Shown: positions 25,090-51,629 of the stretch, in pieces
Layout: each line of letters opens with the position of its first letter
Position numbering within the stretch: the stretch's first letter is position 1
Source of the DNA: Bythopirellula sp.
GTDB taxonomy: Bacteria > Planctomycetota > Planctomycetia > Pirellulales > Lacipirellulaceae
NCBI GenBank assembly: GCA_965216565.1
Contig: OZ244170.1
Span: forward strand, 384,001-448,000
Direction: 5' to 3'
DNA: 64,000 nucleotides
Notes under the pieces: generated by a model
The model's database searches: none
Told to the model about the DNA's origin: nothing
What the model saw: only the letters and a program-made list of their open reading frames with translations
Translations under genes and position numbers: made by a program

Positions 25090-25173
<84 letters not shown>

Positions 25174-25209
25174 CTTATGTGGCTGGAGACTTACACCTCC
25201 TGCCTCTCC

Positions 25210-25282
<73 letters not shown>

Positions 25283-25284
25283 CT

Positions 25285-26712: not shown

Positions 26713-27555
26713 ATGTCGCAGGACACCCTCAATCTCGGTGATTTCGACTCTTCTCTATGTCGACCTCTTGGTTGTACCTTCTATTTCATCACCTCAATAG
26801 TAATGGTCTTTGGGTACAAGGTTGATATTCTGTTCCCAATTGGTGGTGAGGACTGGTTTTGGGGAGTCCTGGTAACGGCAGGCGGTGCCGTTCTCTTCAT
26901 GTGGCCTATTGGTTTAGTTTTTCTGCTGCTCTCTATTCCGTTCATCAAATTACTCGGTAAAGGTCTAGGCTTTCTAGCTATCTTGCTATGTATGGTTCTA
27001 TTTTACCCCGCACTGAACGTAGCAATTGGAGTAAGCCAAGGACACTTTGAAGATAAGGCCAAGATTCTTCTTCGTATGGATAGAGAACGTGGAGTCCGTG
27101 AAGAGCTCCCCGAGGAGTTATCCCACAAGCGGGTGGAGTACTTTGTTTTTTTGACGGAGAGCGTAAACAGTTCGTTTCTAGATGCAAAGACAGCCTTTGA
27201 AAAACTGATTGATATCAACTTCATCAAGTCCCTACAGCCCAATATTGAGAAGCAAATGCAAATAGGGGAAATCGTCGATGAAAGCATTAAAGAGTTATCG
27301 AGAATGCAAGGCAGTATGCCCGCAAGAGAGGTACATGTGGACAATTGGAAATACTTTAACGGAGCATTCCTCGAGGCTTCACTGGAGATAAAACGACTAA
27401 GTGAAATACGCAGCATTCACTTTGAGGAGGGGGAATTATTAAGCGTTAATAGAGAGGCCCCAAAGACTCATAGCCCGCTAATGACTTTTCTTGCTTTTTG
27501 GTTTTTTGTTGGCATCGGCATGATCGTGATTAAAGGAATCATGAAGGGCAATTGA
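26713..27555 (+). CDS. Hypothetical membrane protein
   Basis: Three N-terminal and one C-terminal hydrophobic segments. Confidence 0.75.
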   Translation: MSQDTLNLGDFDSSLCRPLGCTFYFITSIVMVFGYKVDILFPIGGEDWFWGVLVTAGGAVLFMWPIGLVFLLLSIPFIKLLGKGLGFLAILLCMVLFYPALNVAIGVSQGHFEDKAKILLRMDRERGVREELPEELSHKRVEYFVFLTESVNSSFLDAKTAFEKLIDINFIKSLQPNIEKQMQIGEIVDESIKELSRMQGSMPAREVHVDNWKYFNGAFLEASLEIKRLSEIRSIHFEEGELLSVNREAPKTHSPLMTFLAFWFFVGIGMIVIKGIMKGN

Positions 27556-27587: not shown

Positions 27588-29111
27588 TCAGTCGTCACGA
27601 AAACTCTTTATGTCATCAGGTCCGAAGTCATCTTCTTCGTGTTCATCGTTAGCTCCGAGTGCATTCTCTATTTTTGTTGAATCCCATTCGGGTGCTTCCC
27701 AATCGTCCTCGAAGAACTGGGTTGGTAACCACTTCTTTCTCCCATCTGGTAACTTTTCAGGTTCCCAATAGGGTTGGAAGAACTTCTCTCTGATATTGAA
27801 GGGCTCAGCATGTTGATCGATGATATCTCGGGTAAATCCAGAAATTCGTCCATCGGACTTAATATTCCTGATGTCTTTTTCCGAGATGATAGTGTCCAGA
27901 ACCCTCGCCCCACCAACCTTTTTAGTTTGGCGTTCCTTATTCCATGGCTCATCTGCCGCTACGTTCTTTTCAGTCGAAGCCTCTTTCGGACCTAATAATT
28001 CGGCGGCCCATTTGGTATCTTTGGGGTCCTCAACTGCAAGAATCATTTTATTGCCAAGCTGACTAGTAAGCGTCTCTACGTTAGCTTCTGTTTTGAATGC
28101 CGAAACAAGAGAATGTCTTGTTTGGAAAGCCAATAGAGCAAAAATACCGAGCCAGCGACCTTCCAATAGAGTTGTTGATAGAGCTTCATGGTTTGAGAAT
28201 TTAGCAAACTCATCAATTATTATTGCAGTATTGAACGGCGAATCGTCACCTTCTTTAGGTGGATTCAAGTCCCGATTTAAGAGGATTGCTTGAAGACGTG
28301 TCATCACAGTGCGATTAAGCTCATTGAGCATAGAGCTAGGCTCTGTGTCAGCACCAAGCACTAGAATACCTTCTGTCTTGACCCAATTCTTCAAGCTAAC
28401 TGATTTGCCGTCCATCACGTGTTGATGCATGTAATCTGAGAGCCGTCTTAATCCTTCAAATCGTCCCCTCACATCGGCTTGAATATTATCAGCTGTTCGA
28501 TCAGAACCAAGATCGGCGAGAAGTTCGCGACCGTGCTGTCGGGTTGCAATAACCTTCCGCCTAAGATCAGGATTTAGCATGACGTAGACAAAATCCGTGA
28601 ATGTCCAGTCTTGCTTTAGTATGCTTTTTAGACCGAGAAGCGTATGGGTTATTAGTCCACGACTCATCTTATTAAAAAACATCGCGGCGTCATCGGTCCC
28701 AGTTGGCTCGGGGACTAAAGTGGCGGCAATTCCCATCGCATCATTCTCGTGAGCAACATCAGCGGCGATGTCCCAGGCATAAGCTCTTTTGTCATGCGGG
28801 TGCATAAGAATTAGATCTACGCCGCTGTCTTTTATTGCATAGATGTTGGAAGCGAACTCCGGCTTTGGGTCATAAATGATGAGACGTTGATTACTCCCTG
28901 GGAGTATGTAGGGAACGATATCATGTAGGATCGTATGTATGACTGTGCTTTTTCCACTCCCTGTCGCACCCATAATCATGAAATGACGTTCACGCACTTT
29001 CCTGAGAGGAAGTTTCTTACGGAAGTCACCCCAGAAAATCTTTCTTTCCGTTGGTTTTGGTCGAAACCAATTTCGTATTGCTGCAAAAAGTCCGGTTTTT
29101 TTTGTGGCCAT
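27588..29111 (-). CDS. Type IV coupling protein (TrwB/TraD-like)
   Basis: HFMIMGATGSGKS, IYDPKPE, IIIDEF and LAFQ motifs; co-oriented with the relaxase. Confidence 0.9.
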   Translation of the reverse strand: MATKKTGLFAAIRNWFRPKPTERKIFWGDFRKKLPLRKVRERHFMIMGATGSGKSTVIHTILHDIVPYILPGSNQRLIIYDPKPEFASNIYAIKDSGVDLILMHPHDKRAYAWDIAADVAHENDAMGIAATLVPEPTGTDDAAMFFNKMSRGLITHTLLGLKSILKQDWTFTDFVYVMLNPDLRRKVIATRQHGRELLADLGSDRTADNIQADVRGRFEGLRRLSDYMHQHVMDGKSVSLKNWVKTEGILVLGADTEPSSMLNELNRTVMTRLQAILLNRDLNPPKEGDDSPFNTAIIIDEFAKFSNHEALSTTLLEGRWLGIFALLAFQTRHSLVSAFKTEANVETLTSQLGNKMILAVEDPKDTKWAAELLGPKEASTEKNVAADEPWNKERQTKKVGGARVLDTIISEKDIRNIKSDGRISGFTRDIIDQHAEPFNIREKFFQPYWEPEKLPDGRKKWLPTQFFEDDWEAPEWDSTKIENALGANDEHEEDDFGPDDIKSFRDD

Positions 29112-29116
29112 AGTGA

Positions 29117-29584
29117 TTATCTCCAAAAAAAGATGATTCTAAAGATGACCCTAAAGGCGGGGTCAGCCCACCCAGGCTCGCCTCTCCCACGATCATCTGC
29201 TTTCGACTCTGGAGGAACACAAAGGAACAGGTAGACTACTGCTGAAAAGAGAGCGGGAATCGTGCAGAGCCAGAAAGGAACTGCACTTAGGCTTTCTTTA
29301 GAGTGCAAGTACCCAGGTATCCCCCAGACGAAAAACATTGATAGCATCGAGAGAATAGCAAGGGCGTTTTTCTCCAAGAGGGAGAGGTTAAGAGCTTTAT
29401 GATAGAAAGAGACCGCGAAGTATGAGAAGGGGAGGAGGTAAGCATATACGAGAGTTGGGGAAGGGTTCTCAGGGAGAAAGGTATATTGAAATTCTTTGTC
29501 CTGTGCGATCAGGTAGTAGACGATTGCAGCCAGTGATGCAGCAAGTGCACAAGTAAGAGCAAGATGGAATATAGGTTTCAACAT
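29117..29584 (-). CDS. Four-TM membrane protein between relaxase and coupling protein
   Basis: Hydrophobic segments and operon position. Confidence 0.7.
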   Translation of the reverse strand: MLKPIFHLALTCALAASLAAIVYYLIAQDKEFQYTFLPENPSPTLVYAYLLPFSYFAVSFYHKALNLSLLEKNALAILSMLSMFFVWGIPGYLHSKESLSAVPFWLCTIPALFSAVVYLFLCVPPESKADDRGRGEPGWADPAFRVIFRIIFFWR

Positions 29585-29613
29585 GATGATGCCAGAGTTG
29601 GACAGACCGCTGT

Positions 29614-32445
29614 CTATTTGTCGTACGAGGTGTCGTGTGTAGGGGGCAGAACTTTTGGAGGAGCATTTTGTTCAGCGATTGAGGCAGCCAACTCATGGGC
29701 CATCTCTTGTCGCCGTGATCTTTCAAGTTGAGACTTAAGCGGGCCATCAAGAGGCTGCTGAACAGGCTTATTCTCGTAGTCATATTTTGGTGGAGCTAGG
29801 GTTCCTCGTGCTAACTGGGTAAGAACTTCGCCAGCACTGTGTTCCGTCGTGTATAGGTTAAGGGTCTTTTTGTGGCGACTCCCTTGAACATAGCTCATTT
29901 CTTTATCTGTCATTGAGTCCCCAAGTGCCACATACATGTTATCGATTGTTGCCCCTTGAAGTTTATGCACTGTATCTGCGTAGCTAAGGCGAAAAGCGGG
30001 GCGTTGATCGTGCTTATCCGGTTTGGCAAACTTGGTTCGACCGATGATTGTTTCTAAAGGGATGAGGCGAATATCATCATCGTTGGGCCTGTATTTGAAT
30101 GTAGGTTTTTCAGGGGCTTGCCTTAAAAGCTGGATTGCTGAGTGCTTGAGTAGCTCTGTCGCCTTTGTCTTTAGGGATTTTTTCGGCACGTCAATTTTCA
30201 CCGCGATCGCTTTAGTCCAGCCCCAATCTCGAATCCCAAGGATAATGCCCTCATCGCCGTTAAAGACTCGAAGCTTTCGTGAGTTCTTCTGGAACTTGAT
30301 TTTATCGCCCACATAGAAAGTAGTGTCATCGAACATTAACCGCTTCTTAGACTCTAGTTGACCTGCTTTGAGCCTGACTTGCTGTGCCGCAAGGTTTAAG
30401 GCATCAACTTGTTTGTTGGTTGAGGCAGCAATGACATGGCTGTCTGGATCTTCCGCACCACCTGCCTTCTCCCAATCTTTGATAATCTTCTCTTCTAGTT
30501 CGTGTGAGGTCTCAGAGACATTAAGAAACCCTTTTTCAGCATATGCTCTAAGGAAATCCTCAACTCTTGCCTCAGAGATGTCTATTGTGGCTTTTTTAGC
30601 CCAGTCTTTTTCTTGACGTTCAACTTTGACCAGCTTACTGCTTCCAAACATGTTGATGATTTGAGTAAACGCAGCACCGGGACCAACAGGAGGGAGTTGC
30701 TTATCGTCACCAACAACGATGAGGCGGGCACCTTGTTCCTCAACAGCTTTAACTAGTAGCTGCATGTCGCCTGTTGTAACCATGCTTGCTTCATCAAGCA
30801 CTAACACCTTCTTTTGGGATAGTTTTAGTTTCTCACGTTTGTAGGTCCACTTCTTTCGTGCAGCACGAGTCAGTTGTCGTAAGTGATGCTTTACTAGGTA
30901 TTTCTTCTCTGGGTAGATCTGCAAAAGTCGCATTTTGAGCGTATCGGTTGGTATGCCAGCTCCAGCTTGTAGCTCCTGACGTGCTCTATGAGTAGGAGTG
31001 AGGCCGATTACCTCATAGCCTTGAGCCTCATAAGCTTGTCGTGTTGCCGCAAGCATGGTGGTCTTACCAGTACCAGCTAAACCCGTCACAACACGCACGG
31101 TAGCGTCACCTAATACGAGATGCTGTACAGCCTCTGCCTGTTCAGAATTAAGTTCGAGAGAGAAATCACTACCTTTTTTATCAACAAGTTGAATTGGCTT
31201 ACTAAGAAGCTTCTCAACCTTCTTCTTGGATAGCTGTACTAGCTTCCTATCTTTCAAGGTATTTAGAGATTCAGTTAGCAACCGCTCAGATTCAAGGGTT
31301 GAGCTAGTAGTGAAGTATTGCTCGAAACTTCTGGTTCCCAGGTTATGCAATCTGCTTGAGTCAGCAACTTCCTTGTCAAACTGAGAAAGGAAGTAATCTG
31401 GCGTAACGCCAGAAGCTTGTAGCTGATGAGCAACTTCAAGCATAAGGTCTTTACGCGAGAAGTAGCTCTTGATGCTTTCTAGTGACTCAACTCCTTCAGA
31501 AAGTGACCGCCGTAGCACTGAGTACCTATCTGTCTTAGCTCGCCCTTTGCCTAACAACTCGCGTGCTTTGGAAAGGGTGAAGCCTACTTCGCTAGACTCA
31601 TGCCGCCAGCGATCAAACAGTTCGCTTCTTGCAGGAACTACGTCCTTCACTGCCCGAGTGGCTAGATTTGCTAAGGCAGCAGCTGAAGCGGTCTCAACAC
31701 CTTTCTTCCCAAGTTCTTTCTCAATTTGCTTACGTCTTTTAGAGAATGCATCCCTAACATCTTTGGATATTCCGGCAACTTCAAAAGAAGTATCATTCTG
31801 CTCAATTGCTAATCCAAGTTCTTGCTCAAGTATGTGGGCGAACTCCAGCCTATAGATTGCACCAGCAAGCATCTTATGCTGGTAAAAGGGTTTGCTTAGA
31901 AGAGCGCGAACATTTGAATCGGGGCAGAATCCAAGATTGAGAAGTAGGCAGTGAGTATGAAGCTGTGGGTCGAGTGCTCGACTAGTACTATGCTCAAAAG
32001 CTGCTACTACTAGCTTTGCAGGAACCAGTTCAGAGCCACCTTTGCCAATACGTGCATACGCAACATTATCTTCTATATATTTTACCGCACGTCTTACGGC
32101 AGCTAAGTGAGCTTTCTGTAGTTTAGTTCGGGCATCCGGCTCCAGCTGTGCCCAAAGGACACTCACAGACTTAGGAGCGGAGAAGGTGAGATCCCAGCCT
32201 GGTTTTCGCTCTAGTTTGCCACTAGTTTTACCAGCGTTTTGAACCAACGCTTTACCCTCTGGGGAAAAGCCTCGCATTAGCTGCTTTAGCTGCTCAGGCT
32301 CAACTGTGCCACCTAGCTTCAGATGTCTACACCCTTCCCCTAGCCAACGGCCTTCAGGTTCACCACCTTCAAGGTAGTAATCCTCGACCGCTAGCGAGAG
32401 ATAATACTTTTCTCCGCCTAGCGACATGTGAGAAATCGAAAGCAT
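29614..32445 (-). CDS. MOBF relaxase-helicase (TrwC/TraI-like)
   Basis: KYY...EDYY, DLTFSAPKSVS, HSTSRALDPQLHTH, GLAGTGKT, LDEASM and GDDKQL motifs. Confidence 0.96.
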   Translation of the reverse strand: MLSISHMSLGGEKYYLSLAVEDYYLEGGEPEGRWLGEGCRHLKLGGTVEPEQLKQLMRGFSPEGKALVQNAGKTSGKLERKPGWDLTFSAPKSVSVLWAQLEPDARTKLQKAHLAAVRRAVKYIEDNVAYARIGKGGSELVPAKLVVAAFEHSTSRALDPQLHTHCLLLNLGFCPDSNVRALLSKPFYQHKMLAGAIYRLEFAHILEQELGLAIEQNDTSFEVAGISKDVRDAFSKRRKQIEKELGKKGVETASAAALANLATRAVKDVVPARSELFDRWRHESSEVGFTLSKARELLGKGRAKTDRYSVLRRSLSEGVESLESIKSYFSRKDLMLEVAHQLQASGVTPDYFLSQFDKEVADSSRLHNLGTRSFEQYFTTSSTLESERLLTESLNTLKDRKLVQLSKKKVEKLLSKPIQLVDKKGSDFSLELNSEQAEAVQHLVLGDATVRVVTGLAGTGKTTMLAATRQAYEAQGYEVIGLTPTHRARQELQAGAGIPTDTLKMRLLQIYPEKKYLVKHHLRQLTRAARKKWTYKREKLKLSQKKVLVLDEASMVTTGDMQLLVKAVEEQGARLIVVGDDKQLPPVGPGAAFTQIINMFGSSKLVKVERQEKDWAKKATIDISEARVEDFLRAYAEKGFLNVSETSHELEEKIIKDWEKAGGAEDPDSHVIAASTNKQVDALNLAAQQVRLKAGQLESKKRLMFDDTTFYVGDKIKFQKNSRKLRVFNGDEGIILGIRDWGWTKAIAVKIDVPKKSLKTKATELLKHSAIQLLRQAPEKPTFKYRPNDDDIRLIPLETIIGRTKFAKPDKHDQRPAFRLSYADTVHKLQGATIDNMYVALGDSMTDKEMSYVQGSRHKKTLNLYTTEHSAGEVLTQLARGTLAPPKYDYENKPVQQPLDGPLKSQLERSRRQEMAHELAASIAEQNAPPKVLPPTHDTSYDK

Positions 32446-36316: not shown

Positions 36317-36624
36317 ACAGAGAAAGCAACACGGAGTGAGCATCGAGCCGTGGCGGTTGCTATTGCAATGAAGCTGCCTTTTCGCAGTTAGGCGACCCAT
36401 TTTCATCGATAATGGTTTGAGCGAACCGTTATAGGTCCCCCCAGAAATGTCGTGCTCTGAAATCGCGAAGTATTAAACGAGCCTGGAACCATGTCAGTAG
36501 TGCTAAATAGCTGCACATGATCTGAACCAAAGCGACCATAGAGGATAGCTCCACAAATAAGAAGGACGAGATAGGCCCTAAGTTCCCGCTCAGCATTTGC
36601 TATTGCCTGAGTATTCACCTCCAT
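36317..36624 (-). pseudogene. Decayed duplicate of 37198..37508
   Basis: Nucleotide similarity over ~310 bp; protein similarity (LYGRF.S..VQLF) is lost after a frameshift. Confidence 0.8.
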
Positions 36625-36998: not shown

Positions 36999-37250
36999 TT
37001 AATACTCCTCAATTGGATATCAATGTTTGCCCTTCTAGGTGATGTAGTTTTCATTTTGCAGTTCCTAAATAAGAATAGTCCTTTCGCCTCTTGGGGAAGG
37101 ACTATTCTGCCTAATAAGTCGGATACGATGCTGGAGAGCATTTCATTATTATGGTGAGAATCAAGGAACGACGTTGCATAGCAATGCACGTTAAAGAACA
37201 GAGAAAGCAACACGGAGTGAGGCATCGAGCCGTGGCGGTTGCTATTTCGA

Positions 37251-37508
37251 TTAAGCTGCCTCTTTGAAGTTAGGCGACTTTTTTTCATCGAGTATGGTTT
37301 GTGCGAACCGTTCTAGGTCGTTCCAGAAATGCCGTGCTCTGTAGGCATCGTGCATTAAACGAGCCAAGCGAAGCATATCGGGATAGGTAAACAGCTGCAC
37401 ATCAACCGAATCAAAGCGACCATAAAGATCAGCTCTGCAAATCGAAATCACCGGATAGGCTTTAAGCTCAATTTCAACGTCTGTTGCTGCCTGAGTATCT
37501 TTCTTCAT
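37251..37508 (-). CDS. Hypothetical protein (paralogue of 36672..36998)
   Basis: CRADL...DMLRLAR...W..LE..AQ..LDEKK; RBS GGGAG. Confidence 0.8.
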   Translation of the reverse strand: MKKDTQAATDVEIELKAYPVISICRADLYGRFDSVDVQLFTYPDMLRLARLMHDAYRARHFWNDLERFAQTILDEKKSPNFKEAA

Positions 37509-37541: not shown

Positions 37542-38216
37542 CTATTTCTTTCTTTTCCGAAGCACAAGGCATACATCATGAACTCTCGGTATGAATGAGA
37601 AATGATACGTGCGGTTAGTGGAAGTAGCTCCGTGACTAAGCCGAATAATCTCTGGACACGCCAGCTCAAGCCCTACTTGTGTTGCTACACACCACGTGCG
37701 AAATGGAAGGGCATCGTAAGAGCCTCGGCAGGTTCTATCACCAATTAGAATTGCAATATGGCCGTATGGAGAAAGCGTGTCTGCACAATTTTGTAAGACT
37801 GCTTTTAGTTTTACTAGAAACGAGTTCACGTCTTTGCAGCGAGACAAACATCTTGGGTCATCTTGGTACTTGATCAAAGTGTGATAGGGAGGGTGAAGCC
37901 ACACCATATCAAACTCTAGTAAGCCACTAAAGCTACTTGGCTCAGCTGCATCAAAGTCATCTTTTAAGTCAAATCCTTGATAGCGAATATCGAGAGACTC
38001 TGCGACATCCCGTGCAGTGCCTCCCCCTTGCATTGGGTCAAGTAGGTTTCGAGGTTTGAAGTAGTTGAGTAGGTCTCTAATCAGGAGCCCCGAACAATTA
38101 CCGCGATAACTTGGGTCGCCAAAATCACCTCTACCTTCTTCAGCATGGATACTGCATAGCGTTGGAACAGGGCTTGTAGTATTCGGAATTTCAAGAGGGA
38201 CTGTTAGTGTCGTCAT
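37542..38216 (-). CDS. Orphan N4-C/N6-A DNA methyltransferase
   Basis: LDPMQGGGT SAM-binding motif and HPPY catalytic motif; start reassigned to MTTLT with RBS GGAG. Confidence 0.85.
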   Translation of the reverse strand: MTTLTVPLEIPNTTSPVPTLCSIHAEEGRGDFGDPSYRGNCSGLLIRDLLNYFKPRNLLDPMQGGGTARDVAESLDIRYQGFDLKDDFDAAEPSSFSGLLEFDMVWLHPPYHTLIKYQDDPRCLSRCKDVNSFLVKLKAVLQNCADTLSPYGHIAILIGDRTCRGSYDALPFRTWCVATQVGLELACPEIIRLSHGATSTNRTYHFSFIPRVHDVCLVLRKRKK

Positions 38217-38537
38217 AGGGTATATCTCCAAAAAAATGTTTGTCCTTTTGCCCTTTTGCAAAGGACAAACATTTACCGCTACCCGTAACAACTATGAGAA
38301 AAGCGAAATGGGCGTGTTATGCAACACGTGTGTACTAGCCAGCATAATGCTGATGTAGGGCCAGCTTGAAATGACGAAGCTGAGCAAGGCGTTATGGAGG
38401 ATGCTATGCAGGTCTTAAAAGGCACAAAAGGAAGTGAGTCTCGGCGGGACGATTCAACGCGAGCCGTAGAGCCTAAGGGGACTGCCGTTGAAGGGGCACT
38501 GTTTGAGCGGCTAACTGAAAGTAAAATTGGAGACCTT

Positions 38538-38825
38538 ATGTGCGAGGGACGATGCCTAAGGGACTACATATCTCATCAAACAAGTGATGGAATCTCAGTT
38601 GTGACTGATAGTGATTTGATGATTTTCTTACACGGGGAGCAGAATTGGTTCCGTGTCGATTTCGATGAAACAGCGGCTGACATCAATGATTGGGTAAAGA
38701 AAAACGACGGGTTCTACTACGAGTATTCAGCACCGAGTTACCAGGGGCAGGGGCATCGTGACACAGCGATTGCAGAGGCCCGCGAACAAGGTAGAAAAGT
38801 TGTCGTGATTTGCAATTTAGGCTAA
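38538..38825 (+). CDS. Hypothetical protein
   Basis: RBS GGAG before ATG 38538; the ORF track extends it to 38394. Confidence 0.55.
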   Translation: MCEGRCLRDYISHQTSDGISVVTDSDLMIFLHGEQNWFRVDFDETAADINDWVKKNDGFYYEYSAPSYQGQGHRDTAIAEAREQGRKVVVICNLG

Positions 38826-38845: not shown

Positions 38846-41071
38846 TTATTTACTAAGCTGAAAAGCACCTGGCACTTCTTTTCCAGCTCGCTCAGCATCC
38901 GAGACGTGATGAAAGGTTAGATAAGCCTTCTTATCTTTTCGATTGATTTTGAGCAACGTTCCATACTCACGATATTGGTCAAAGATAGTTCCGAGAGTAG
39001 GATTCGAGTTGCCAAGTGGCACACCTACGCAATGGGGCCTTGGTAGTTTCTGGTGATAACCGAGCACGTGCGGTTTGATATTTTTATTTGAGCCCATAGT
39101 CATACCGTAGGTGACGATGGCTGCTTTTTCTGCGTCACGGGAACGTTGGAAAGTAACGTATGAAGAGGCGAGATCTGGTGAGTCTCTATCCTTTACTAAG
39201 TTTATCTCATCAATCACGCCGAATCGGCCAAGCTCATCTCGTAGTAGATCTTCAGTGACATCGGGAGGAAGTTTATGAATACAAATGCAACTGCGAGTGG
39301 AATGAATAACAGAGAGACGATGTTGGGCACGTGAGGCAGCAAGATACCAATAGGTTTTGGGACTTCCTTTGAGTCTCGAAGGATGTTGGTAGTCAATAAC
39401 GATGATGCAATCAGCTTCTAAACCTTTGACCTGCCCGCCAACTAAATACCGCACTTGGGTATTGTTGCGGGGACGAGAAGCTTCTACTAGTTGTGGATTC
39501 TTGAGTGTGCTAAGCGATGTATCTTTAAGGGGTCTTCGTCCGACTACTAGTATTTGCGATGAGAGAAATCCTTGCTCTTGATAATGTTTTAGGTGTGCAG
39601 CTAATGCATGTCGTTGGTCGCACGGGTCAACTTCGTCTTCAAGAGGGGGCTCACCAGCAGGGGCGTCATCGTTGGGTCGCGACTCAACATTGACGGCCTC
39701 ATAAATGTAGCGAGCAATGGCCTTTGTATTGCGGTAGTTCTTATCCCATTTCATTCGAAACATGTCGGGAGGTAAACTAAGTCTATCTCGATAAGATTGT
39801 TTGCCCTGAAAAAAGAACTGGCGAAAGTTCTGGTCAGGGTCGTAAAATATACACAGACGACCATTTTTACCGTGTTTTAGTAGCAATGGGTCTTCAATTA
39901 GTGTCCACCAATCGTTCTCAAAATCCTGCCCTTCGTCGATTATGATCTGATCGTATGTTGTGTAAGGAGTGCCTTCTCGCTGCAATGAGTCGAGACATTC
40001 GTAACAGAGCATAAGCGCCTGAGTGGAGTAAAACTCTCTAAGTTCACCTGGGTCATCAGGTTCAATCCATTCGCTTGCTCTTCCAGCGGCGGTGATGACT
40101 GCTTTACAGAAAGTATGGAATGAAAATACGTCAACATACTTACAGCCAGAAAGTTGTGAGGCAATCCACTCTGCAAGATTCTGGTTGAAGGTAAGGAATA
40201 GAACTCGCTCAGCTTTTTTATTTAGCTCATGTGCATAAGAGAGGGCAGCGACTGTTTTACCTGACCCCGCAACTCCCTGTATCAATCGACGAGGTTCATC
40301 AATGGCGTATAGAAAGTCCTCCACCCTTTGTTTGAGTGAGCCGAATCGTTCTTTTTCAACTGATACGGGGTCGGGAGCAGTCTCTAAGGTCCAATCACCT
40401 AGTAGAGCGGTCTTAACGAGATTGAATTCATCTCGGGTAAGCGGTTGTGGCATCGGTTTGTTGAAGTAGCGATAAGCACCACGTATCCAGCCCTCAAAGC
40501 TTTCTTGGCTATTTGCATCTTCGTGCAGCATCGTTATGGCAAGGTCACCTGCTGAGCCCACTGATTGGTACTTTATGGCAATCTCTGATTGAACGGCGGG
40601 GTCGGTGAATGACTTTTGGCTCTCTAAGGCAAATTCCCGAGACCGAGTTTGCCTCACATTGGGCAGTGCAATAGCGAAACCGTGTGGGACACCGCGTGTT
40701 CTAAACCACGCCCGTCCCTTACCAAGTGTTGCCATGTATTGGTTGATCTTGGTAATAAACCCAAACTTCGTTGTGGCTGCTTGTTTGAATGGGTCTTTTT
40801 CTAAGGGATGCTCATTCTGATACCAACTACCATCTTTACACCTTACAAAGCCTGTTTTTGCCTCAACTAAAAGAAGTCCCAATTGCCGGTGCAGGAGTAA
40901 GAAGTCTGCTTCTCCGTCTCGTAGGCGGTCACTATGGTCTGGAAACAAGACCTGCTGGCTATGGAGCACAAGAAACTCATCGCTAAGAGCGTTCTCAAAT
41001 ACAGGAAATAGGAGCCTCTCAGCATGGCTGCCTGAGGAGTGTATGTACTCCTTTGGAATCATACGAGCCAT
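38846..41071 (-). CDS. NERD nuclease + SF1 (UvrD-like) helicase + C-terminal RRM-like domains
   Basis: GEADFLLL...LVEAK; GVAGSGKT, DEGQD, NYRN, KGLE, ASRA; IHKLPPDVTEDLLRDELGRFG...YVTF. Confidence 0.88.
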   Translation of the reverse strand: MARMIPKEYIHSSGSHAERLLFPVFENALSDEFLVLHSQQVLFPDHSDRLRDGEADFLLLHRQLGLLLVEAKTGFVRCKDGSWYQNEHPLEKDPFKQAATTKFGFITKINQYMATLGKGRAWFRTRGVPHGFAIALPNVRQTRSREFALESQKSFTDPAVQSEIAIKYQSVGSAGDLAITMLHEDANSQESFEGWIRGAYRYFNKPMPQPLTRDEFNLVKTALLGDWTLETAPDPVSVEKERFGSLKQRVEDFLYAIDEPRRLIQGVAGSGKTVAALSYAHELNKKAERVLFLTFNQNLAEWIASQLSGCKYVDVFSFHTFCKAVITAAGRASEWIEPDDPGELREFYSTQALMLCYECLDSLQREGTPYTTYDQIIIDEGQDFENDWWTLIEDPLLLKHGKNGRLCIFYDPDQNFRQFFFQGKQSYRDRLSLPPDMFRMKWDKNYRNTKAIARYIYEAVNVESRPNDDAPAGEPPLEDEVDPCDQRHALAAHLKHYQEQGFLSSQILVVGRRPLKDTSLSTLKNPQLVEASRPRNNTQVRYLVGGQVKGLEADCIIVIDYQHPSRLKGSPKTYWYLAASRAQHRLSVIHSTRSCICIHKLPPDVTEDLLRDELGRFGVIDEINLVKDRDSPDLASSYVTFQRSRDAEKAAIVTYGMTMGSNKNIKPHVLGYHQKLPRPHCVGVPLGNSNPTLGTIFDQYREYGTLLKINRKDKKAYLTFHHVSDAERAGKEVPGAFQLSK

Positions 41072-41639
41072 CGGATTTCACCGCGACTAGAGGAAGATTT
41101 GATGGGATATGTGAGAGTAGGGACCGGGATGTTAGCCTAGTCCAATTTAAGCTAAGCCGTTTTAGATAACCAGTAATGTCTGGTTTGAAATCATATGGAA
41201 TTGGGCGATTTACGGAGTCAATGTAGGCAGTGAATTAGCTTCGTTTTGTTAGGGGGCTCAGCCATTTGATATACTGGTCCTTTCTCAGTTCGTCTGTAAT
41301 CAACCATGTTGTATCGCAACATACTGCCTAGTAAATGGTACCAAGTGATTTCCTGCTGCAATTAGTTTAGTTCCTTCCCGAACGGCTCAAAAATCACCGA
41401 CATTATCCACTTTGGTGTGATCTGTATTTACTTAGGAGTGTGCGAAGGAATAGTTGTAATATTGCTCGAAAGCGAGAGAATAGGGGATGCGAGCCGTGGC
41501 TGCTGTGGATGATTATTCCACCTGACGAAATACTTGATTGAGGCAAAGCATGATGGGCGACGAATACGACGTATTGGTCTTATTGGAACACGCGAAACGT
41601 GATGCACTGTTTGGGGTATAGCCTTCGGGGTTCGCACCA

Positions 41640-42458
41640 ATGGAAATAATCGACAACTATAAATACGAGTGTGGAGCAATTGGCGAGAAGGAGTCTGGTA
41701 CGGTTGTCATTAGTGATGTGAATCTGGACTCTCGGGGTCTTCGAGCCGTAGAACACCAACGGTCTGATCAGACATTCTTCTGGGATGTGCCAATAGAACG
41801 AAAAGATATAGTAAGCTCGTTTGACGGCTTACATCCCGACGCATATGGGTTTCGAGACTCGGGAGACGGCGAATACTCTGAGAACGTGCGGGCACTTTAC
41901 GAAGAGTGGGAGCTTGAAGACAGAGTGGAATACACATGGCTGCAAGCAGCGATTAGGTATGAAGTTTTCTCGCACCTTTTGGAAGTTCGGGCACCATGTG
42001 TTGCAAGAACACTTGGTATGATCGCGGAACGACAACGGCATCAGGCTCTTGATATTACTGAAGCCGATTTCTCTGGTGATACGGTACCGCTAGCCGTCGA
42101 TAGAGTGAGAATAGATAAGGCTTTGGCACATCTGCTAAGAATATTTGGTCAAGAGGGTTGTGAAAGGGACCTAATGCGGGTCTCAGATAAGCAATATCGA
42201 CAAGCTATGGCCCAATCAATTGAAGAAGTCGCAGACTCGCTTAGTCCAGAGGCTGCACAAGAGTATGTGGATGCTCTAGCATCCCTGACCGAGGGAATCT
42301 TTCATGGAGAGAAAGAGCCTGATAACTATACTCCAGAATTGCTCTTCCCTCTGATGGAATGTTTGAAAGATCAAGATAAAGTTGTCGATATGACAGAAAT
42401 CGTAAAACACTTGAGCTTAGATTCTTTCACACTGGAATCTCGCAAGAAACGCGATTAA
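41640..42458 (+). CDS. Acidic hypothetical protein
   Basis: 272-aa ORF, first of four co-oriented genes. Confidence 0.75.
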   Translation: MEIIDNYKYECGAIGEKESGTVVISDVNLDSRGLRAVEHQRSDQTFFWDVPIERKDIVSSFDGLHPDAYGFRDSGDGEYSENVRALYEEWELEDRVEYTWLQAAIRYEVFSHLLEVRAPCVARTLGMIAERQRHQALDITEADFSGDTVPLAVDRVRIDKALAHLLRIFGQEGCERDLMRVSDKQYRQAMAQSIEEVADSLSPEAAQEYVDALASLTEGIFHGEKEPDNYTPELLFPLMECLKDQDKVVDMTEIVKHLSLDSFTLESRKKRD

Positions 42459-42472
42459 AGAAAGTAGAATCA

Positions 42473-43192
42473 ATGGTGAATTACCACGAACTGCTGGGAC
42501 TAAATAAAAACGCTTCACTAGAAGAGGTGAAAGCGAACTATCGGAAGTTGTGCCTTGAGAATCATCCAGATCGTGAGGCAGGGAATGAAGAGCGGTTCAG
42601 AGAAGTACAAGCAGCTTTTGAAGTTCTCATAGAAGAAGTGAGTGGAAATGTTGCTGAGGAACCTGAGGAAGAAGAACCGAAGCCTGTGCCACTTGAGGAC
42701 AACGACAAACTCGTGTGGCCGAGAAGGCCTAAACACGGCCCTTTCAAAAAGATTCGCTTTGAATCATTTTTTGACTGGAATACCTGGTACGGAGACGAAA
42801 AGGCCTATGGTCCTAGTATGAAGCTTCCCTCGAACTGCTCAATTGGCTCTCTGTGGTTAATTGAAGATGGAAACGTGTGCGAGCAGTGGGATAGGTTCTA
42901 CAACTTTAGTGCAATGAAATCTTTTACCCCCCTGGGTGAACAGACGCCAATTGTAGATGGGGAATGGTCAGTCTTTGAGTCGAGCCATAATGGAACTTTC
43001 TTTATTGGAACAGGTAGTGGTGAAACTCCTAGAGTGCGAGTGCTGGCGAGGGGACATAAAGATGAGAATTCAGCATGGGTGGTGAATCAGTCTTATCTAT
43101 ATCGCTACATGAACAGTGCATGGTGGGAGCAGAGAGTGCAATTGGATGAAGCTGAGCGTACGTTTTACAAGGAACTAGGAATGGATATGTGA
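42473..43192 (+). CDS. J-domain (DnaJ-like) protein with unknown C-terminal domain
   Basis: NYHELLGL...EVKANYRKL...HPD...F.EV..AFEVL. Confidence 0.9.
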   Translation: MVNYHELLGLNKNASLEEVKANYRKLCLENHPDREAGNEERFREVQAAFEVLIEEVSGNVAEEPEEEEPKPVPLEDNDKLVWPRRPKHGPFKKIRFESFFDWNTWYGDEKAYGPSMKLPSNCSIGSLWLIEDGNVCEQWDRFYNFSAMKSFTPLGEQTPIVDGEWSVFESSHNGTFFIGTGSGETPRVRVLARGHKDENSAWVVNQSYLYRYMNSAWWEQRVQLDEAERTFYKELGMDM

Positions 43193-43217
43193 GAGTCGTG
43201 GTAGATGGGAAAATCTG

Positions 43218-43643
43218 ATGGAAGATCTTAGATGCGGGCCAATTCTGTTTGTGAGAGAGGATGGGGAGATTAAGTTCTTCTTAGTCCGAGATGAGCATGT
43301 TGGTCTATTACTTCCATGCACCCTCCAAGAAAAGAACGAGACTGAGGTAGAGACTGCCCGTCGTCTACTATTAGAGCTAACTGGCAAAGAGGCACTTAAG
43401 AGTTACGAGACTCAGCCAATTAGAAACGAATACGTTTCAAATATTGGAGGAGAAAAGTTGCTTAGGAAAATGGAATTCTACGTCTATGAATTTAGTGATG
43501 TAGAGCTTTATCTACAACGTGATTGTCTTGTCGAATATAGTTGGATAAGTCATCAGAGTGTTCGGGATTCGTTAGGAGAGAGCCGGGTAGTTGAGATTCT
43601 TGACGATGCTTTGCGTGTTCTTGGGCAGGAGCCATCGGTCTAG
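43218..43643 (+). CDS. Nudix-fold protein with degenerate Nudix box
   Basis: LPCTLQEKNETEVETARRLLLELTG versus consensus Gx5Ex7REUxEExGU. Confidence 0.7.
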   Translation: MEDLRCGPILFVREDGEIKFFLVRDEHVGLLLPCTLQEKNETEVETARRLLLELTGKEALKSYETQPIRNEYVSNIGGEKLLRKMEFYVYEFSDVELYLQRDCLVEYSWISHQSVRDSLGESRVVEILDDALRVLGQEPSV

Positions 43644-43675
43644 TAAAACTCTTTAATTGAACAGAGTGAGAGTAG

Positions 43676-44074
43676 GTGAGGAATCTGATGGACTCTGACA
43701 AACAAAATTTAGAGAGCTACAAAGAGCTTCTAGGTTTACTCGAAAAACTTACTGAGATCCGAGCGAGTATGGATGCTGAAAAAGCATCTTGCTTGCCTGA
43801 TGAGTATCGGAGAAGAGGAGTATCAGACGACAGATTCTGTGAATGGCACGAAGAACATCTCGAGTACGGCAAAAAAACAGACACTGAACTTGAGAGTTCC
43901 TATCTTTTCTTTGAGCTTCGCGATGCAGCACAGCCTCTCCTTAAGGCCATAAGAGAACACCCGGCATGGGTGAATTTTTATGAAATGAAAGGGATGTTTG
44001 ATGAGTTCCAGCAGTTAAGTACTCCAAAGAAAAGTGCTGATGTTGTGGAGCCGGACAATGAGTGTCCGTTTTAG
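43676..44074 (+). CDS. Acidic helical hypothetical protein
   Basis: 132-aa ORF ending VEPDNECPF. Confidence 0.7.
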   Translation: MRNLMDSDKQNLESYKELLGLLEKLTEIRASMDAEKASCLPDEYRRRGVSDDRFCEWHEEHLEYGKKTDTELESSYLFFELRDAAQPLLKAIREHPAWVNFYEMKGMFDEFQQLSTPKKSADVVEPDNECPF

Positions 44075-44414: not shown

Positions 44415-45032
44415 CTACTTAGTAGCTGTGCCAAAAAGAACAGCCGATGCCACGCCACTCCCTCGACGACGAAGAAGTATACGCTTTCTGATGAGCCATG
44501 ACTCTTGCTCTATAGCCTCCATGCAAACAGGGTTAAATGCGATCAATTGAATTTCTCTGGGATTGGCTTCAATCGAATCTCTAATGTTATTTAACACACC
44601 ATGCAACGTTGGTCCTCCGAAAGGATTAAAGAAGAAAAAGATTGTTCCCTCCCGTATTTCAAAAGTCGCTGCATCACCATGATGTATTTCAATCTCAGTC
44701 CGTCGCACCCTAAGTCGCCGAGAGTTCTCCTTGGCCTTTTGTGCCCATAATGAATTGTATTCCACACCGTATACTTTTGACAGCTTGTATCTTGCGGCGA
44801 AACAAACAACACGACCAGTGCCACAACCAAAGTCGATCACTACATCGTTATTGCGGAGTAGAAGTCTGGAAAAGAGCTTGAAGAGGATCCAATAAGGAGT
44901 AGCAAGACATTCGAAGCTGTCTGGATGCGATCCCGGCTCTGAATCAATGTCTCTAGTAGATATAGCGTAAAAAGAATCAAGAACAAAGTCGTGTAGACCC
45001 ACGACTAACCTCGCAACGCTACTTATCACCAT
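44415..45032 (-). CDS. Class I SAM methyltransferase (DOT1-like), paralogue 2
   Basis: TPYW, DFGCGTGRV, GVE, GDA and FNPFGG; start reassigned to MVISS with RBS AGGAG. Confidence 0.88.
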   Translation of the reverse strand: MVISSVARLVVGLHDFVLDSFYAISTRDIDSEPGSHPDSFECLATPYWILFKLFSRLLLRNNDVVIDFGCGTGRVVCFAARYKLSKVYGVEYNSLWAQKAKENSRRLRVRRTEIEIHHGDAATFEIREGTIFFFFNPFGGPTLHGVLNNIRDSIEANPREIQLIAFNPVCMEAIEQESWLIRKRILLRRRGSGVASAVLFGTATK

Positions 45033-45048
45033 TTTTCTCCTAAGAACT

Positions 45049-45666
45049 CTACTTTGCGTTTTTATACATGACTGCCGACACTTCGCCATTTCTTCGTTTT
45101 AAGAGCACTTGTTTTTTATCTAACCAATCTTGCTCCTCAAACTGCGAGAAACAGGCAGGGTTTAGCGCGACAATACGAATAGATCGGGGCCTCTCGTGAA
45201 TCGACAGCCTTATATTCTCTATTACTCTCTTTAGGGTTCCGCCGCCAAAGGGATTAAAAAAGTAAAAAATCGTGCCGTCGATGCAGTCGAATTCGACGGC
45301 ATCCTGCTCAGCAACGACAACTTCTGAACGCCGCTTCTTGAGACGAGTCGCGTTACTTCGTGCTTGAGCTGCCCATCTTGGGTTAAGCTCTACGCCATAA
45401 ACTCTACTAAAGTGCATTCGAGCCGCGAGGCAAATCACTCTCCCTGTCCCCGCCCCAAAATCAACAAAAACATCATTCGGACCCATCACTATTCTGCTTA
45501 GAATTCGTTGGGCTACCCAGTAAGGAGTCGGAAGACATTCAAAGTGTTCCGCAGATTTCGTATTACTACTTTGTAACTCCTCTTCTAGGGTATACACACC
45601 TAGTCGATAATCCATATAGCGATTGTGGTAGCTAACAACCTTTGGATATAGTAAATTTGCTGCCAT
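45049..45666 (-). CDS. Class I SAM methyltransferase (DOT1-like), paralogue 1
   Basis: TPYW, DFGAGTGRV, GVE, QDA and FNPFGG. Confidence 0.88.
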   Translation of the reverse strand: MAANLLYPKVVSYHNRYMDYRLGVYTLEEELQSSNTKSAEHFECLPTPYWVAQRILSRIVMGPNDVFVDFGAGTGRVICLAARMHFSRVYGVELNPRWAAQARSNATRLKKRRSEVVVAEQDAVEFDCIDGTIFYFFNPFGGGTLKRVIENIRLSIHERPRSIRIVALNPACFSQFEEQDWLDKKQVLLKRRNGEVSAVMYKNAK

Positions 45667-46064: not shown

Positions 46065-47078
46065 TTAATTCGCTAGTTCGCCACCATCGCGAGTCGACAT
46101 AGCACGCCAGACCGCGAGGTCAATTTCGTCCGGGATAGACTGTACAGAACCATCAAGAAGGCCTACTTGTACCTGCCCCGGGTGGAAGCTTCGTGACGTA
46201 ATCATCGCGAAGGTTGGATCACCAGCACTGCCATTCTTGCCCTCTTGCCATGAGTTGTAATCCGCATCCACTTCTTCTCCGTCCATCATGTGCGGCACGA
46301 AAGTATTAGGTGTCATCGTTGCTGTGAACCCCGTGTGATGGACTCGACCATCTGGCCATTCGGTGTGACCAGTACCTTTCTCTTGAGCACCAGACTCAAC
46401 CGCAGCGACCGCTTCAGCGATGGTGTTGGGAATATCAGTTGTCGCAGGGCCACCATTACGTGTATAGGGAGTCCAGGCTTTGACTTCTGCACAAAGTAGT
46501 GTGTTGCTAGTTCCATCGGTGACGCGAGCGAGTGGCAAGTTGCTGTTTGGATAAAAGGTTCCATTCCCCCCTTCTTGAGTCGTAGGATCAAAGACGAACC
46601 AAGTACCAAGATTGAACCCATAGTTCGTAGGCCACAGTGTCGGACGGTTATCCGAAAAAGTACGGGACTCTTCGCTCTTGAAATCACTTGGACACTGAAA
46701 CACTGGGATGCGTACATCGCTAATTGCTTGTTGATCATCCCAGGCGGCTTCGATGTTCACTAAATCTCTCAAGTTGTCTTGTTCCAAATAATTGAGGATG
46801 CGACCGTGAACTCCCCAAGAACCATTGTTGCCGGTACTGGTAACACTTAGATTAACCAAAGCACTAGGAGGTAAATGTCTTCTCGCACTTTCATAGTTAA
46901 GAATTCCAATTCCCAGTTGACGTAGATTGTTCTTGCATTGACTTCGTCTAGCGGCCTCCCTAGCAGCTTGGACGGCAGGTAGCAGCAAAGCTACCAAGAC
47001 ACCAATAATCGCAATTACGACCAACAGTTCCACGAGTGTAAAACCAAGGCTATAACGCGTCTTGCTGTTGTACTTCAT
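46065..47078 (-). CDS. DUF1559 prepilin-type protein (H-X9-DG)
   Basis: [31 protein letters not shown] and SFHPG...DGSV. Confidence 0.95.
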
Positions 47079-50458: not shown

Positions 50459-51556
50459 TTGATCTCTGCGCATCCAAAGTGCCTTTCATAATTTCAACTG
50501 GGCGGATTTGAAGAAGGATTGTTTTAAGGAATGACTGATTTGTTGGCCTTTCAGTGTCGATCGAGCTTTGCGTTTGAGGTGCGACACGTCGTCGGGGACG
50601 AAGTTCGCCAGCTTTCCGTACTTCGCATGGCTCCATCTCGGCTCGACCGGATTGAGTTCGGGGGAGTATGCCGGCAGCCACTCGAATTCAACGCTTTCGA
50701 CTCGCGATGCCTCGATACGCTTGCTAACCGCGCGATGGACGCTCCAACGATCCCAAACGACGATCATCGGACGTTGCAGCTTTCGGCGCATCTCGGTGAG
50801 AAACGCGACAACTTCGTTGGTGCGGATGTTGTCGTCATGAATTTGAAACGGCGTACTGATAGTTCGTCGCGTCGGAGAAAGCGCCACGGCACCAATGACG
50901 CTCAAGCGATCGTAACGATCCCAAGCCCGTTGCACCGGTGTCTCACCTGTTTTCGCCCACGTTCGACGGTTCACCGGCTGCAGACGGAAGCCCGTTTCAT
51001 CGATAAATACAATGCTGGCGCCACGCCGACGGGCTTTTTTTTGATCCGCGGCCAATCTTTCTTGCGCCATCGCTCGACCGCTTCGGCGTCTTGTTCGCGG
51101 GCGACTTGTCGAGGTTTCTGCGGGCTGAAGCCCAAGTCGTGCATGATGCGACCGAGGTGGTCGGGATGGTACGTGACGCGAAAACGCTTGCGCACCAACT
51201 CGGCGACGCGAGCGCAAGTCCATAGATCGGTCGAAAAACCCGCTGCGATCGGCCCGGCAACTAGCAGTTCGACTAATTCCTCGCGTTGCTTCTCGGACAA
51301 CTTGGCTTCCCGTGGCGGATGTGGTTTGGCGGCCAAAGCATCCACGCCACCCGACTTCCAAGCCGACTTCCAACGCTTCACGCTGGTCAGGCTCACGCCA
51401 AAAAGGCGGGAAATGGTGCGCAGAGATTCCCCTGTATGGAAATGCTCTGCAGCGCGACGACGACGAGCCTCCAGCTCTGTCGCACTGCCTGGTGTTCTCA
51501 TGGAACATAGTACGGTGCTAGCTCCAGGCAAGGTTCATTTCACGCGCAGAGATCAA
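50459..51556 (-). mobile_element. IS630-family insertion sequence
   Basis: Terminal IRs TTGATCTCTGCGC / GCGCAGAGATCAA flanked by duplicated TA in a CTAG context; GC-richer than its flanks. Confidence 0.93.
50486..51501 (-). CDS. IS630 transposase (two frames joined by a probable -1 frameshift)
   Basis: HTH ORF ends WPRIKKK; DDE ORF has FIDETG, WD and LPAYSPELNPVE; A8G run at ~51034-51042. Confidence 0.9.
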
Positions 51557-51629
51557 TAGAATTATTCAGAATTTTGGTAATCATTAGGTAAGGCAACTCA
51601 GTTCTCATTGAGCTGAAATATAGGGATGG

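Follow-up and report, generated by a model that had tools for sequence, protein, structure and literature searches.

The 64,000-nucleotide stretch of DNA analysed here (the window; positions 384,001 to 448,000 of contig OZ244170.1, assembly GCA_965216565.1, Bythopirellula sp.) carries, on its reverse strand, an open reading frame (ORF) whose 741-amino-acid (aa) product combines a NERD nuclease domain and a superfamily 1 (SF1) helicase with two consecutive RNA recognition motifs (RRMs). An earlier reading of the bare sequence (the original prediction) had described this ORF as a NERD nuclease-helicase fused to two RRM-like domains. Pfam, a fold model, Foldseek and hhalign bear this description out; the ORF lies at 38846-41071, and helicase motif VI (residues 576-586) directly precedes the tail (residues 590-741), as had been stated. 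The gene and its parts are located as follows (window positions; the evidence is given in parentheses).

38846..41071, reverse strand: whole gene, 741 aa, NERD nuclease - SF1 helicase - RRM - RRM (ORF list, Pfam, singleton cluster)
40769..41032, reverse strand: NERD nuclease domain, PD-(D/E)xK type, residues 14-101 (Pfam NERD, 28.2 bits; conserved residues)
40856-40912, reverse strand: catalytic E54, D56, E70 and K72 of NERD (alignments)
39305..40336, reverse strand: UvrD-like SF1 helicase core, approximately residues 246-589 (Pfam UvrD-helicase, SLFN-g3_helicase and UvrD_C_2; motif blocks)
40253-40276, reverse strand: Walker A GVAGSGKT, residues 266-273 (motif blocks)
39923-39937, reverse strand: Walker B DEGQD, residues 379-383 (motif blocks)
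39314-39346, reverse strand: motif VI region YLAASRAQHRL, residues 576-586 (motif blocks)
39062..39292, reverse strand: RRM1, residues 594-670, with ribonucleoprotein (RNP) motifs RNP2 ICIHKL and RNP1 LASSYVTF (Pfam RRM_1, PDB sequence matches to HuR and PABP, fold model)
39032..39061, reverse strand: short basic inter-RRM linker, residues 671-680 (a dip in the predicted local distance difference test score, pLDDT, to 63; composition)
38849..39031, reverse strand: RRM2, residues 681-741, shortened, with the beta2-beta3 loop deleted, strands CVGVPL and KKAYLTF (fold model, Foldseek, hhalign, and protein P0121, described below)

The frame is uninterrupted over all 741 codons, and the start is right because relatives begin with the same MARMIP N-terminus. 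In Pfam, residues 14-101 belong to NERD (PF08378; 28.2 bits, cut-off 22.1) and residues 262-335 to UvrD-helicase (PF00580; 28.3 bits, cut-off 23), which makes the protein a UvrD-like SF1 member; SLFN-g3_helicase (PF09848) was matched as well (26.4 bits, cut-off 24), and UvrD_C_2 weakly over residues 547-589. In an alignment of the protein with its 25 best relatives, E54, D56, E70, K72, Walker A, Walker B and motif VI (Y576...R581-A582...L586) are each common to at least 85% of the 26 sequences, and in a 12-sequence alignment E54, D56, E70, K72, K272, D379, E380, Q382, D383 and R581 are invariant. Judged by these residues, both the NERD nuclease and the SF1 ATPase/helicase are intact, and there is no sign of a dead enzyme. 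Comparison of a core profile with solved structures placed HelD nearest (E 8.9e-21), then PcrA, UvrD1, Rep and UvrD, with Schlafen, Upf1 and GajB lower; the NCBIfam model HelD_BACSU also matches the protein (E 8.6e-8).

The fusion is not an assembly chimera, since a contig from an independent sequencing run (run X6, record 5; 39070-39438) bridges the junction between helicase and RRM with zero differences. Four other public runs yielded contig fragments of the locus, all at least 99% identical to it and without variation to analyse. Another contig of run X6, 426 nt long, is exact over 40268-40598 and continues with 95 nt of unrelated sequence. This loose end at 40598, inside the gene, may stem from a rearranged or variant copy in the sample, or from an artefact of the assembly graph.

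The classical RRM_1 domain is the commonest RNA-binding module of eukaryotes. To our knowledge, bacterial RRM_1 domains occur almost only in small stand-alone proteins, and those of the cyanobacterial Rbp type are small and carry a single RRM. The 152-aa tail studied here begins immediately after motif VI. Its first module is a member of RRM_1 (PF00076), with residues 597-662 scoring 45.2 bits in Pfam (cut-off 20.7, E 8.5e-12) and 41.8 bits in a six-frame scan of the genome. It matches the solved structures of HuR, PABP and RBMY by sequence, and its fold model follows the order beta1-alpha1-beta2-beta3-alpha2-beta4. Taken alone, the second module stays below the Pfam cut-off for RRM_1 (12.5 bits, E 0.14), and in phmmer it scored 10 bits or less against every RRM except its counterpart in P0121, to which it is 44% identical.

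Structure prediction, which had been proposed as a check, returned an RRM fold in two units (tail residues 5-81 and 92-149), with a pLDDT of 90.3 for an AlphaFold2 (AF2) model of the tail that was built on an alignment of RRM proteins. The pLDDT is 91-96 in blocks over tail residues 91-150 and dips to 63 in the linker, and module 2 reads as a shortened RRM in this model, a reading that is partly circular given the alignment used. An AF2 model of the whole protein made without an alignment had a pLDDT of 34 and was not used. The best Foldseek matches of the tail are solved tandem RRM pairs (CUGBP1, HuD, PABP, RBM45, HuR and Sxl; ca. 150 columns, probability 1.00), with TM-scores of ca. 0.45, a value expected for domain pairs of differing relative orientation. 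Several of the best matches were solved with single-stranded DNA (ssDNA; RBM45 7csz, FIR 7q8a, ETR-3 9urh), and ssDNA is therefore as likely a ligand as RNA. By sequence, 15 eukaryote-type proteins are colinear with both modules over their own tandem RRMs (17 alignments), in a register that was identical in MAFFT. A match to the linker region, P0177, was dismissed as internally repeated sequence. When a two-sequence profile of module 2 was used as the hhalign query against ten native planctomycete single RRMs, it aligned with 80% probability (E 1.3e-5), in register from alpha1 to alpha2 and with a five-residue deletion in the beta2-beta3 loop. This result and the conservation of the module in the second family member are free of the circularity of the fold model. 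We conclude that module 2 is a shortened, divergent RRM, and that the tail is a tandem RRM pair.

The original prediction knew of no such fusion, and the searches support it on this point. In the protein collection, the 741-aa protein forms a cluster of its own; PF00076 was present in none of its 119 other relatives among the matches listed (120 of 485), whose lengths are 521-650 aa, and the ten Atlas clusters among the matches listed for the whole protein are NERD-helicases of 541-586 aa, none with an RRM. The tail was searched exhaustively with HMMER (E <=0.001) against 1.84 billion cluster representatives that stand for ca. 15 billion proteins. Among the matches listed from a total of 234, the whole tail was covered only by P0121 (186 aa, E 1.4e-27). 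Of the 149 other matches listed, 26 were scanned with Pfam. P0121 has no domain but RRM_1, and the other 25 scanned were eukaryotic-type multi-RRM proteins (with MLLE, WW or HAT repeats), none of them with a nuclease or helicase domain. The architecture is thus not common, with one other copy among ca. 15 billion proteins.

P0121 starts within helicase motif VI (...TYWYLAASRAQHRLSV...); over 187 residues (motif VI plus tail), its identity to the protein is 47%. A search of short proteins yielded P0270 (222 aa), which is 47% identical to residues 113-330 of the core. Each of the two is recorded on an 11,265-bp ENA contig, and the shared source and this size alone suggest that they probably lie on one metagenome contig. 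As far as can be told from these sequences, the whole architecture thus has a second copy, which is divergent and recorded in two or more pieces. The two family members share both RRM modules, including the unusual CVGVPL, KIN-KD and AFQL-K strings. Because the RRM modules are kept about as well as the core at 47% identity, the tail appears to have been under long purifying selection.

No further fusion locus was found in genome and metagenome contig collections with a profile of the tail alignment. The organism's own genome contains one copy, and the fusion is absent from 400 other genomes of the phylum (two of them have weak matches, in open frames of 112-177 aa). Similarly, a local tail profile detected no RRM, either fused or within 7 kb, at any of 80 genomic loci of core relatives; its positive controls, namely the locus of the fusion itself plus ten native RRM genes, were all recovered. 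In 72 of the 80 relatives, 48 or fewer residues lie beyond the match. Of the remaining eight, seven have a match that stops early, inside the helicase, and L091 has 107 extra residues, without an RRM. All of the 25 closest relatives end within ca. 10 residues past motif VI. Since relatives end at motif VI without an RRM, the tail is a lineage-specific add-on. Full-text searches of the literature, limited to main texts, found no published description of a NERD-helicase-RRM fusion. We conclude that the NERD-helicase-RRM-RRM fusion is real and almost unique.

Over residues 1-589, the core is homologous to its tail-less relatives (22-32% identity). In PADLOC, the model RTasNERD-Hel matches best (E 2.1e-33), followed by a 'NERD+UvrD' candidate (E 1.5e-23); the GajB, AbiO and Nhi models match only around the P-loop or over other short stretches. 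The 80 loci of core relatives come from many phyla, and the 35 with full flanks were used to count neighbours (PADLOC, E <=1e-5). Same-strand ORFs lie within 150 nt at 28 of these 35 loci (56 ORFs) and are absent from seven; at 16 of the 35, the same-strand chain includes defence genes. DISARM genes stand immediately upstream of the NERD-helicase at seven loci, all with DrmB, which is accompanied by DrmA in L043, L062, L071, L074 and L085, by DrmC in L018, and is alone in L088. As L018 has DrmC too, the NERD-helicase is not always a DrmC replacement. DruE lies directly upstream at another four of the 35 (L016:1101-8692, L017:707-8740, L067:831-8746 and L077:840-8737). These DruE genes encode 1,955-2,096 aa (PADLOC E = 0), the NERD-helicase follows directly or overlaps by 42 nt or less, and the loci span Planctomycetota, Pseudomonadota, Acidobacteriota and Myxococcota. 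A further ORF of 327-352 aa or 478 aa, without a PADLOC match, stands beside these pairs, and DruE plus NERD-helicase may represent a Druantia-type variant. Other PADLOC models were found at five of the 35 loci (TmtA, PDC-M43B/PDC-S03, HEC-05, GajB-like, and RTasRmuC/PDC-M27A). We conclude that the core family is linked to defence, often within DISARM or Druantia operons.

In one planctomycete locus (L051:1905-8725), a gene for a 1,689-aa TmtA-like protein (PADLOC E 1.5e-210) runs 27 nt into the start of the NERD-helicase gene, a pairing that looks recurrent.

The setting of the fusion gene is different. DrmA/B, DruE or a reverse transcriptase were not found near it (PADLOC on the five surrounding proteins; ORF sizes over 22-52 kb, where the largest ORF is a relaxase and none exceeds 943 aa), and both genes that flank it are on the opposite strand. 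The gene therefore belongs to neither a DISARM- nor a Druantia-type operon, as neither DrmA plus DrmB nor DruE adjoins it. It likewise does not qualify as a UG34/DRT-associated gene: the RTasNERD-Hel model matches but no reverse transcriptase is adjacent, and RVT_1 has no match in the whole 5.2-Mb genome (94% complete by marker genes). The following features define the surroundings of the gene.

25090..25283, forward strand: tRNA-Leu and tRNA-Lys, left island border (ARAGORN, Rfam)
27588..32445, reverse strand: transfer module (Pfam)
27588-29126, reverse strand: type IV coupling protein, T4CP (Pfam TrwB_AAD_bind, E 1.2e-39)
within 27588..32445, reverse strand: 155-aa ORF between T4CP and relaxase
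29614-32445, reverse strand: TrwC relaxase-helicase (Pfam TrwC, E 2.3e-78)
37542..38291, reverse strand: N6/N4-type DNA methyltransferase, apparently orphan, island cargo (PADLOC MTase_II, E 1.2e-18; Pfam N6_N4_Mtase, 23.5 bits, below the cut-off)
38394..38825, forward strand: convergent 143-aa ORF, its stop 21 nt from the stop of the fusion gene
41072..41639, no strand: divergent intergenic gap, 568 nt to the start of a 272-aa ORF

The gene lies in a low-GC island of ca. 20 kb (ca. 25.3-46 kb), in which GC drops from ca. 0.52 to 0.44-0.48, and whose contents also include small ORFs without an assigned family. The two ORFs beside the tRNAs (25578-27555; 294 aa on the reverse and 280 aa on the forward strand), where an integrase would be expected, have no match in Pfam, NCBIfam or PHROGs. 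An integrase was recognised in none of the scanned island ORFs, and an att-type repeat of the tRNA end was not found; 'integrative mobilisable element' is therefore a description by content, and the borders are approximate. The 143-aa ORF has no match in Pfam, PADLOC, NCBIfam or PHROGs, and in the Atlas it matched only 'hypothetical protein' clusters, with low recognition. GC at third codon positions (GC3) is 0.39-0.42 for the tail, the core, the relaxase and T4CP, and 0.52-0.58 in the MnmE and M28-peptidase genes beyond the tRNAs. Because tail, core and island share their base composition, the fusion came in as part of the island and was not captured locally in recent times.

The source of the tail was considered in the light of native RRM_1 genes. 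Of 151 genomes of the class, 129 (G000 among them) have such genes, mostly as open frames of ca. 100-250 aa that score ca. 80-94 bits among those listed; the organism's own genome holds one (78 bits). These native planctomycete proteins belong to the same Pfam family but have one RRM with canonical RNP motifs, whereas RRM1 of the fusion scores 42-45 bits, and only 36 residues of RRM1 align with the genome's own RRM protein in BLASTP. In single-domain comparisons, RRM1 reached at most 27.2 bits against native planctomycete RRMs (n=10) and 31.1 bits against eukaryote-type matches (n=147), a difference too small to favour either source. The best matches of the tail in sequence and fold are the eukaryote-type tandem RRMs (PABP, HuR/HuD, Sxl, CUGBP1 and RBM45), which also have two RRMs and a short linker; at 20-30% identity, they differ from the tail in keeping the RNP aromatics and a full-length second RRM. 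RRM2 scores 6.6 bits against RRM1, by which an internal duplication is neither shown nor excluded.

Among known systems, the closest in layout is Nhi (SERP2475) of Staphylococcus epidermidis, described as an N-terminal nuclease joined to a PF09848-type SF1 helicase, both activities being required for immunity, with sensing and degradation of phage replication intermediates as the proposed action and with a phage single-stranded DNA-binding protein (SSB) that counteracts or modulates this immunity (bioRxiv 10.1101/776245). The 741-aa protein resembles Nhi in that one polypeptide, encoded on mobile DNA, joins a PD-(D/E)xK-type nuclease at the N-terminus to an SF1 helicase of the PF09848/DUF2075 type; Nhi is a single-gene defence, and the gene studied here likewise stands without known partners. 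However, its nuclease is NERD, its helicase is closest to UvrD/PcrA/HelD and not of the Dda/Upf1 type of Nhi, and the C-terminus of Nhi is another, poorly conserved domain and not an RRM pair. On these sequence grounds, we regard the 741-aa protein as an Nhi analogue by architecture, not as a family member. The tail-less NERD-SF1 helicases (DISARM-like, DruE-adjacent and RTasNERD-Hel) have the same catalytic residues and motifs, but are 520-590 aa long and stop right after motif VI, while the 741-aa protein has the RRM tail and no partners. A cluster of the RTasNERD-Hel kind, NERD plus helicase, is reported beside seven of 17 UG34 reverse transcriptases (Mestre et al. 2022, PMC9226505).

For the tail itself, DbpA/YxiN may be the best mechanistic precedent, by analogy: a C-terminal RRM tethers the helicase to its particular nucleic acid and exerts allosteric control over the core (PMC5389509, PMC8536315). 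These are chromosomal housekeeping SF2 RNA helicases of ribosome assembly with a single RRM of another Pfam family (PF03880) and no nuclease, and no homology is implied. The nearest published idea found concerns DUF499 ATPases of BREX-related systems, whose hypervariable C-terminal RRM/ferredoxin-fold is a proposed sensor of foreign nucleic acid (PMC12839542). As in the fusion, an RRM-fold module stands at the C-terminus of a defence NTPase; in that source, the module is of a different class (the authors compare it to Cas7), not RRM_1, and sits on a STAND/AAA+ ATPase, not on NERD-SF1.

Taking gene, family and island together, it is an even call that the 741-aa protein acts as a stand-alone, Nhi-like anti-invader nuclease-helicase carried as cargo by an integrated mobilisable element, with the RRM pair taking over targeting. 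In multi-gene systems, partners such as DrmA/DrmB or DruE would locate the invader and the NERD-helicase would execute; here, the RRM pair would substitute for these partner proteins in finding the target. It could bind single strands that an invader exposes (ssDNA that enters by conjugation or arises in rolling-circle entry, intermediates of replication, nascent transcripts or R-loops), and this binding would tether or release the helicase, which would then translocate and feed DNA to the NERD nuclease. Such a mechanism would be akin to the model proposed for Nhi and to the control of the DbpA/YxiN core by its RRM. The more specific proposal that the pair is a built-in sensor replacing the sensor proteins of DISARM and Druantia, so that single-stranded RNA of the invader, from nascent phage or plasmid transcripts or R-loops, or its ssDNA licenses a DNA-degrading nuclease-helicase, is tentative and, on the sequences at hand, somewhat unlikely; the literature searched describes no role of a classical RRM in prokaryotic immunity. 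The original prediction of a one-gene defence effector is thus plausible, with defence genes at 16 of the 35 loci of the core family and no partner here, and its defensive role is deduced from this setting.

Several observations weigh against an anti-invader enzyme aimed by its RRMs. A canonical RRM is aromatic at three places, namely RNP2 position 2 and RNP1 positions 3 and 5. In the fusion, Cys (RRM1) or Val (RRM2) occupies the first of these and Ser or Lys the second, so that only the RNP1 position-5 Tyr is kept and two of the three stacking aromatics are missing in each module. Neither module is therefore a canonical RNA-binding RRM, and in alignments the second family member has the same pattern. 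The spacing of the RNP2/RNP1-like strings had been read correctly, but the aromatics that should accompany it at these two positions are absent. With RNP motifs this degenerate, canonical RNA stacking is not to be assumed despite the RRM fold, and it is uncertain, from the sequence, whether the pair binds single-stranded RNA in the canonical way. The predicted trigger or guide of single-stranded nucleic acid, otherwise the natural reading of a tandem RRM, is weakened by this loss. The isoelectric point (pI) of RRM1 is near neutral (6.1), that of RRM2 is 9.25 and that of the whole tail 8.98. Unlike a true Nhi, the protein matches the PADLOC model PDLC02372 only over residues 263-298, i.e., 36 residues around Walker A (E 4.5e-5). 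In a quick tree of 36 cores, it forms a long branch (1.73) in no well-supported clade; the same tree puts it within a 12-row group (Shimodaira-Hasegawa-like approximate likelihood ratio test 94) with four DruE-linked rows, from which no conclusion was drawn. The fused family has two members only, so neighbourhood statistics cannot be made for it, and the second copy may be a pseudogene. The reading of module 2 by fold model carries the circularity mentioned above. Finally, we know of no defence phenotype for the clade of the 741-aa protein.

The same residues could point to a protein-interaction module. An RRM pair of the U2AF-homology kind might dock the enzyme on a host or invader protein, such as RNA polymerase or an SSB, or might auto-inhibit the core until displaced, and the non-aromatic RNP2 position 2 and RNP1 position 3 in both modules of both family members, as well as the pI of RRM1, fit such a role. 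HelD, to which the helicase core is closest among solved structures, is an RNA-polymerase-associated factor, and the modulation of Nhi immunity by phage SSB (bioRxiv 10.1101/776245) offers a parallel. We nevertheless hold it unlikely: all four modules retain the Tyr at RNP1 position 5, RRM1 has His/Tyr at RNP2 position 4, RRM2 and the whole tail are basic, and the Arg-x-Phe motif of U2AF-homology motifs was not seen after alpha2 when the sequence was read. The likeness to HelD is limited to generic helicase domains, and no partner gene is evident. A role in the service of the mobile element, with the RRMs holding ssDNA while the protein acts on the ssDNA intermediate of the element's own transfer or replication, or excludes rival elements by acting on them, is distinctly unlikely. 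The gene is ca. 6.4 kb from the TrwC relaxase and T4CP, in the same low-GC island and with shared GC3 (0.39-0.42); conjugative DNA enters as ssDNA, which tandem RRMs can bind (7csz, 7q8a, 9urh). On the other hand, the recurrent partners of the core family are defence genes (DrmA/B, DruE) and not transfer genes, the gene is outside the relaxase operon, from which small ORFs, the methyltransferase and the forward-strand ORF separate it, and defence genes are commonplace as island cargo.

It is quite improbable that the fusion is a decaying or neutral accident, i.e., a rare domain shuffle whose tail has no selected function, so that the protein would act like a tail-less NERD-helicase if at all. 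Two copies only among ca. 15 billion proteins, the record of the second copy as separate 222-aa and 186-aa pieces, perhaps of a broken gene, and the degenerate RNP motifs are what such an accident would leave; the frame intact over 741 codons, the retention of both RRM modules and their odd motifs at a core-like level between copies 47% identical, and identical DNA in several independent samples are not. Very improbable is the last alternative, taken from the original prediction, in which the 570-bp upstream gap would encode an RNA that binds the RRMs and thereby guides or activates the enzyme. A long gene-free gap beside an RRM-bearing protein is the sole point in its favour. In the gap, Rfam matched nothing (E <=1), repeats and hairpin arrays are absent (a single 17-nt match to another place is at chance level), and the fold is no better than that of shuffled sequence (z +1.25 on the reverse and +1.09 on the forward strand; 91 and 89 of 100 shuffles, respectively, fold at least as well). 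One σ70-like site was found in it, on the forward strand (41246-41275), fewer than in shuffles, and none upstream of the fusion gene on its own strand in a scan that excludes planctomycete promoter types. The gap lies between divergent genes and is presumably a promoter region for both, and the proposed RNA partner finds no support there.

The fusion offers a one-gene test case of how nuclease-helicases of this kind are aimed at invaders, and of the ligand of a bacterial RRM whose RNP motifs are non-canonical. Should the tail prove to be a targeting module, the effector of a multi-gene defence can turn autonomous by capturing a nucleic-acid-binding domain; if the sensor proposal is true, the protein would be a single-protein immune effector that senses RNA or ssDNA with an eukaryote-style RRM. 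Its extreme rarity, with two copies found, limits its general importance.

The remaining features on the right side of the island and beyond it are as follows.

41640-44074, forward strand: divergent four-gene row of a 272-aa ORF, a DnaJ-domain protein, a NUDIX-like protein and a 132-aa ORF
44415-45666, reverse strand: two overlapping adjacent S-adenosylmethionine (SAM)-methyltransferases, 224 and 205 aa, at the right edge of the island (DOT1-like in Pfam, 23.7 and 30.7 bits, cut-off 23)
46065-47078: DUF1559/N-methyl protein, indicative of a planctomycete host (Pfam)
50486-51508, reverse strand: IS630-type DDE_3 transposase, beyond a σ54 two-component pair (E 2e-26)

In the four-gene row, the 239-aa member has an N-terminal DnaJ (J) domain only (E 5e-15), and the 141-aa member is weakly NUDIX-like (E 0.047); a J-domain protein is unusual as island cargo. 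Within the island, a direct duplication of ca. 300 nt (36317-36614 and 37198-37498) consists of three segments that are 71-100% identical at a spacing of 881-884 nt, and yields paralogous small ORFs without an assigned family at 36403-36624 (73 aa) and 37251-37508 (85 aa). The DDE_3 transposase gene is overlain by a long antisense ORF at 50531-51559.

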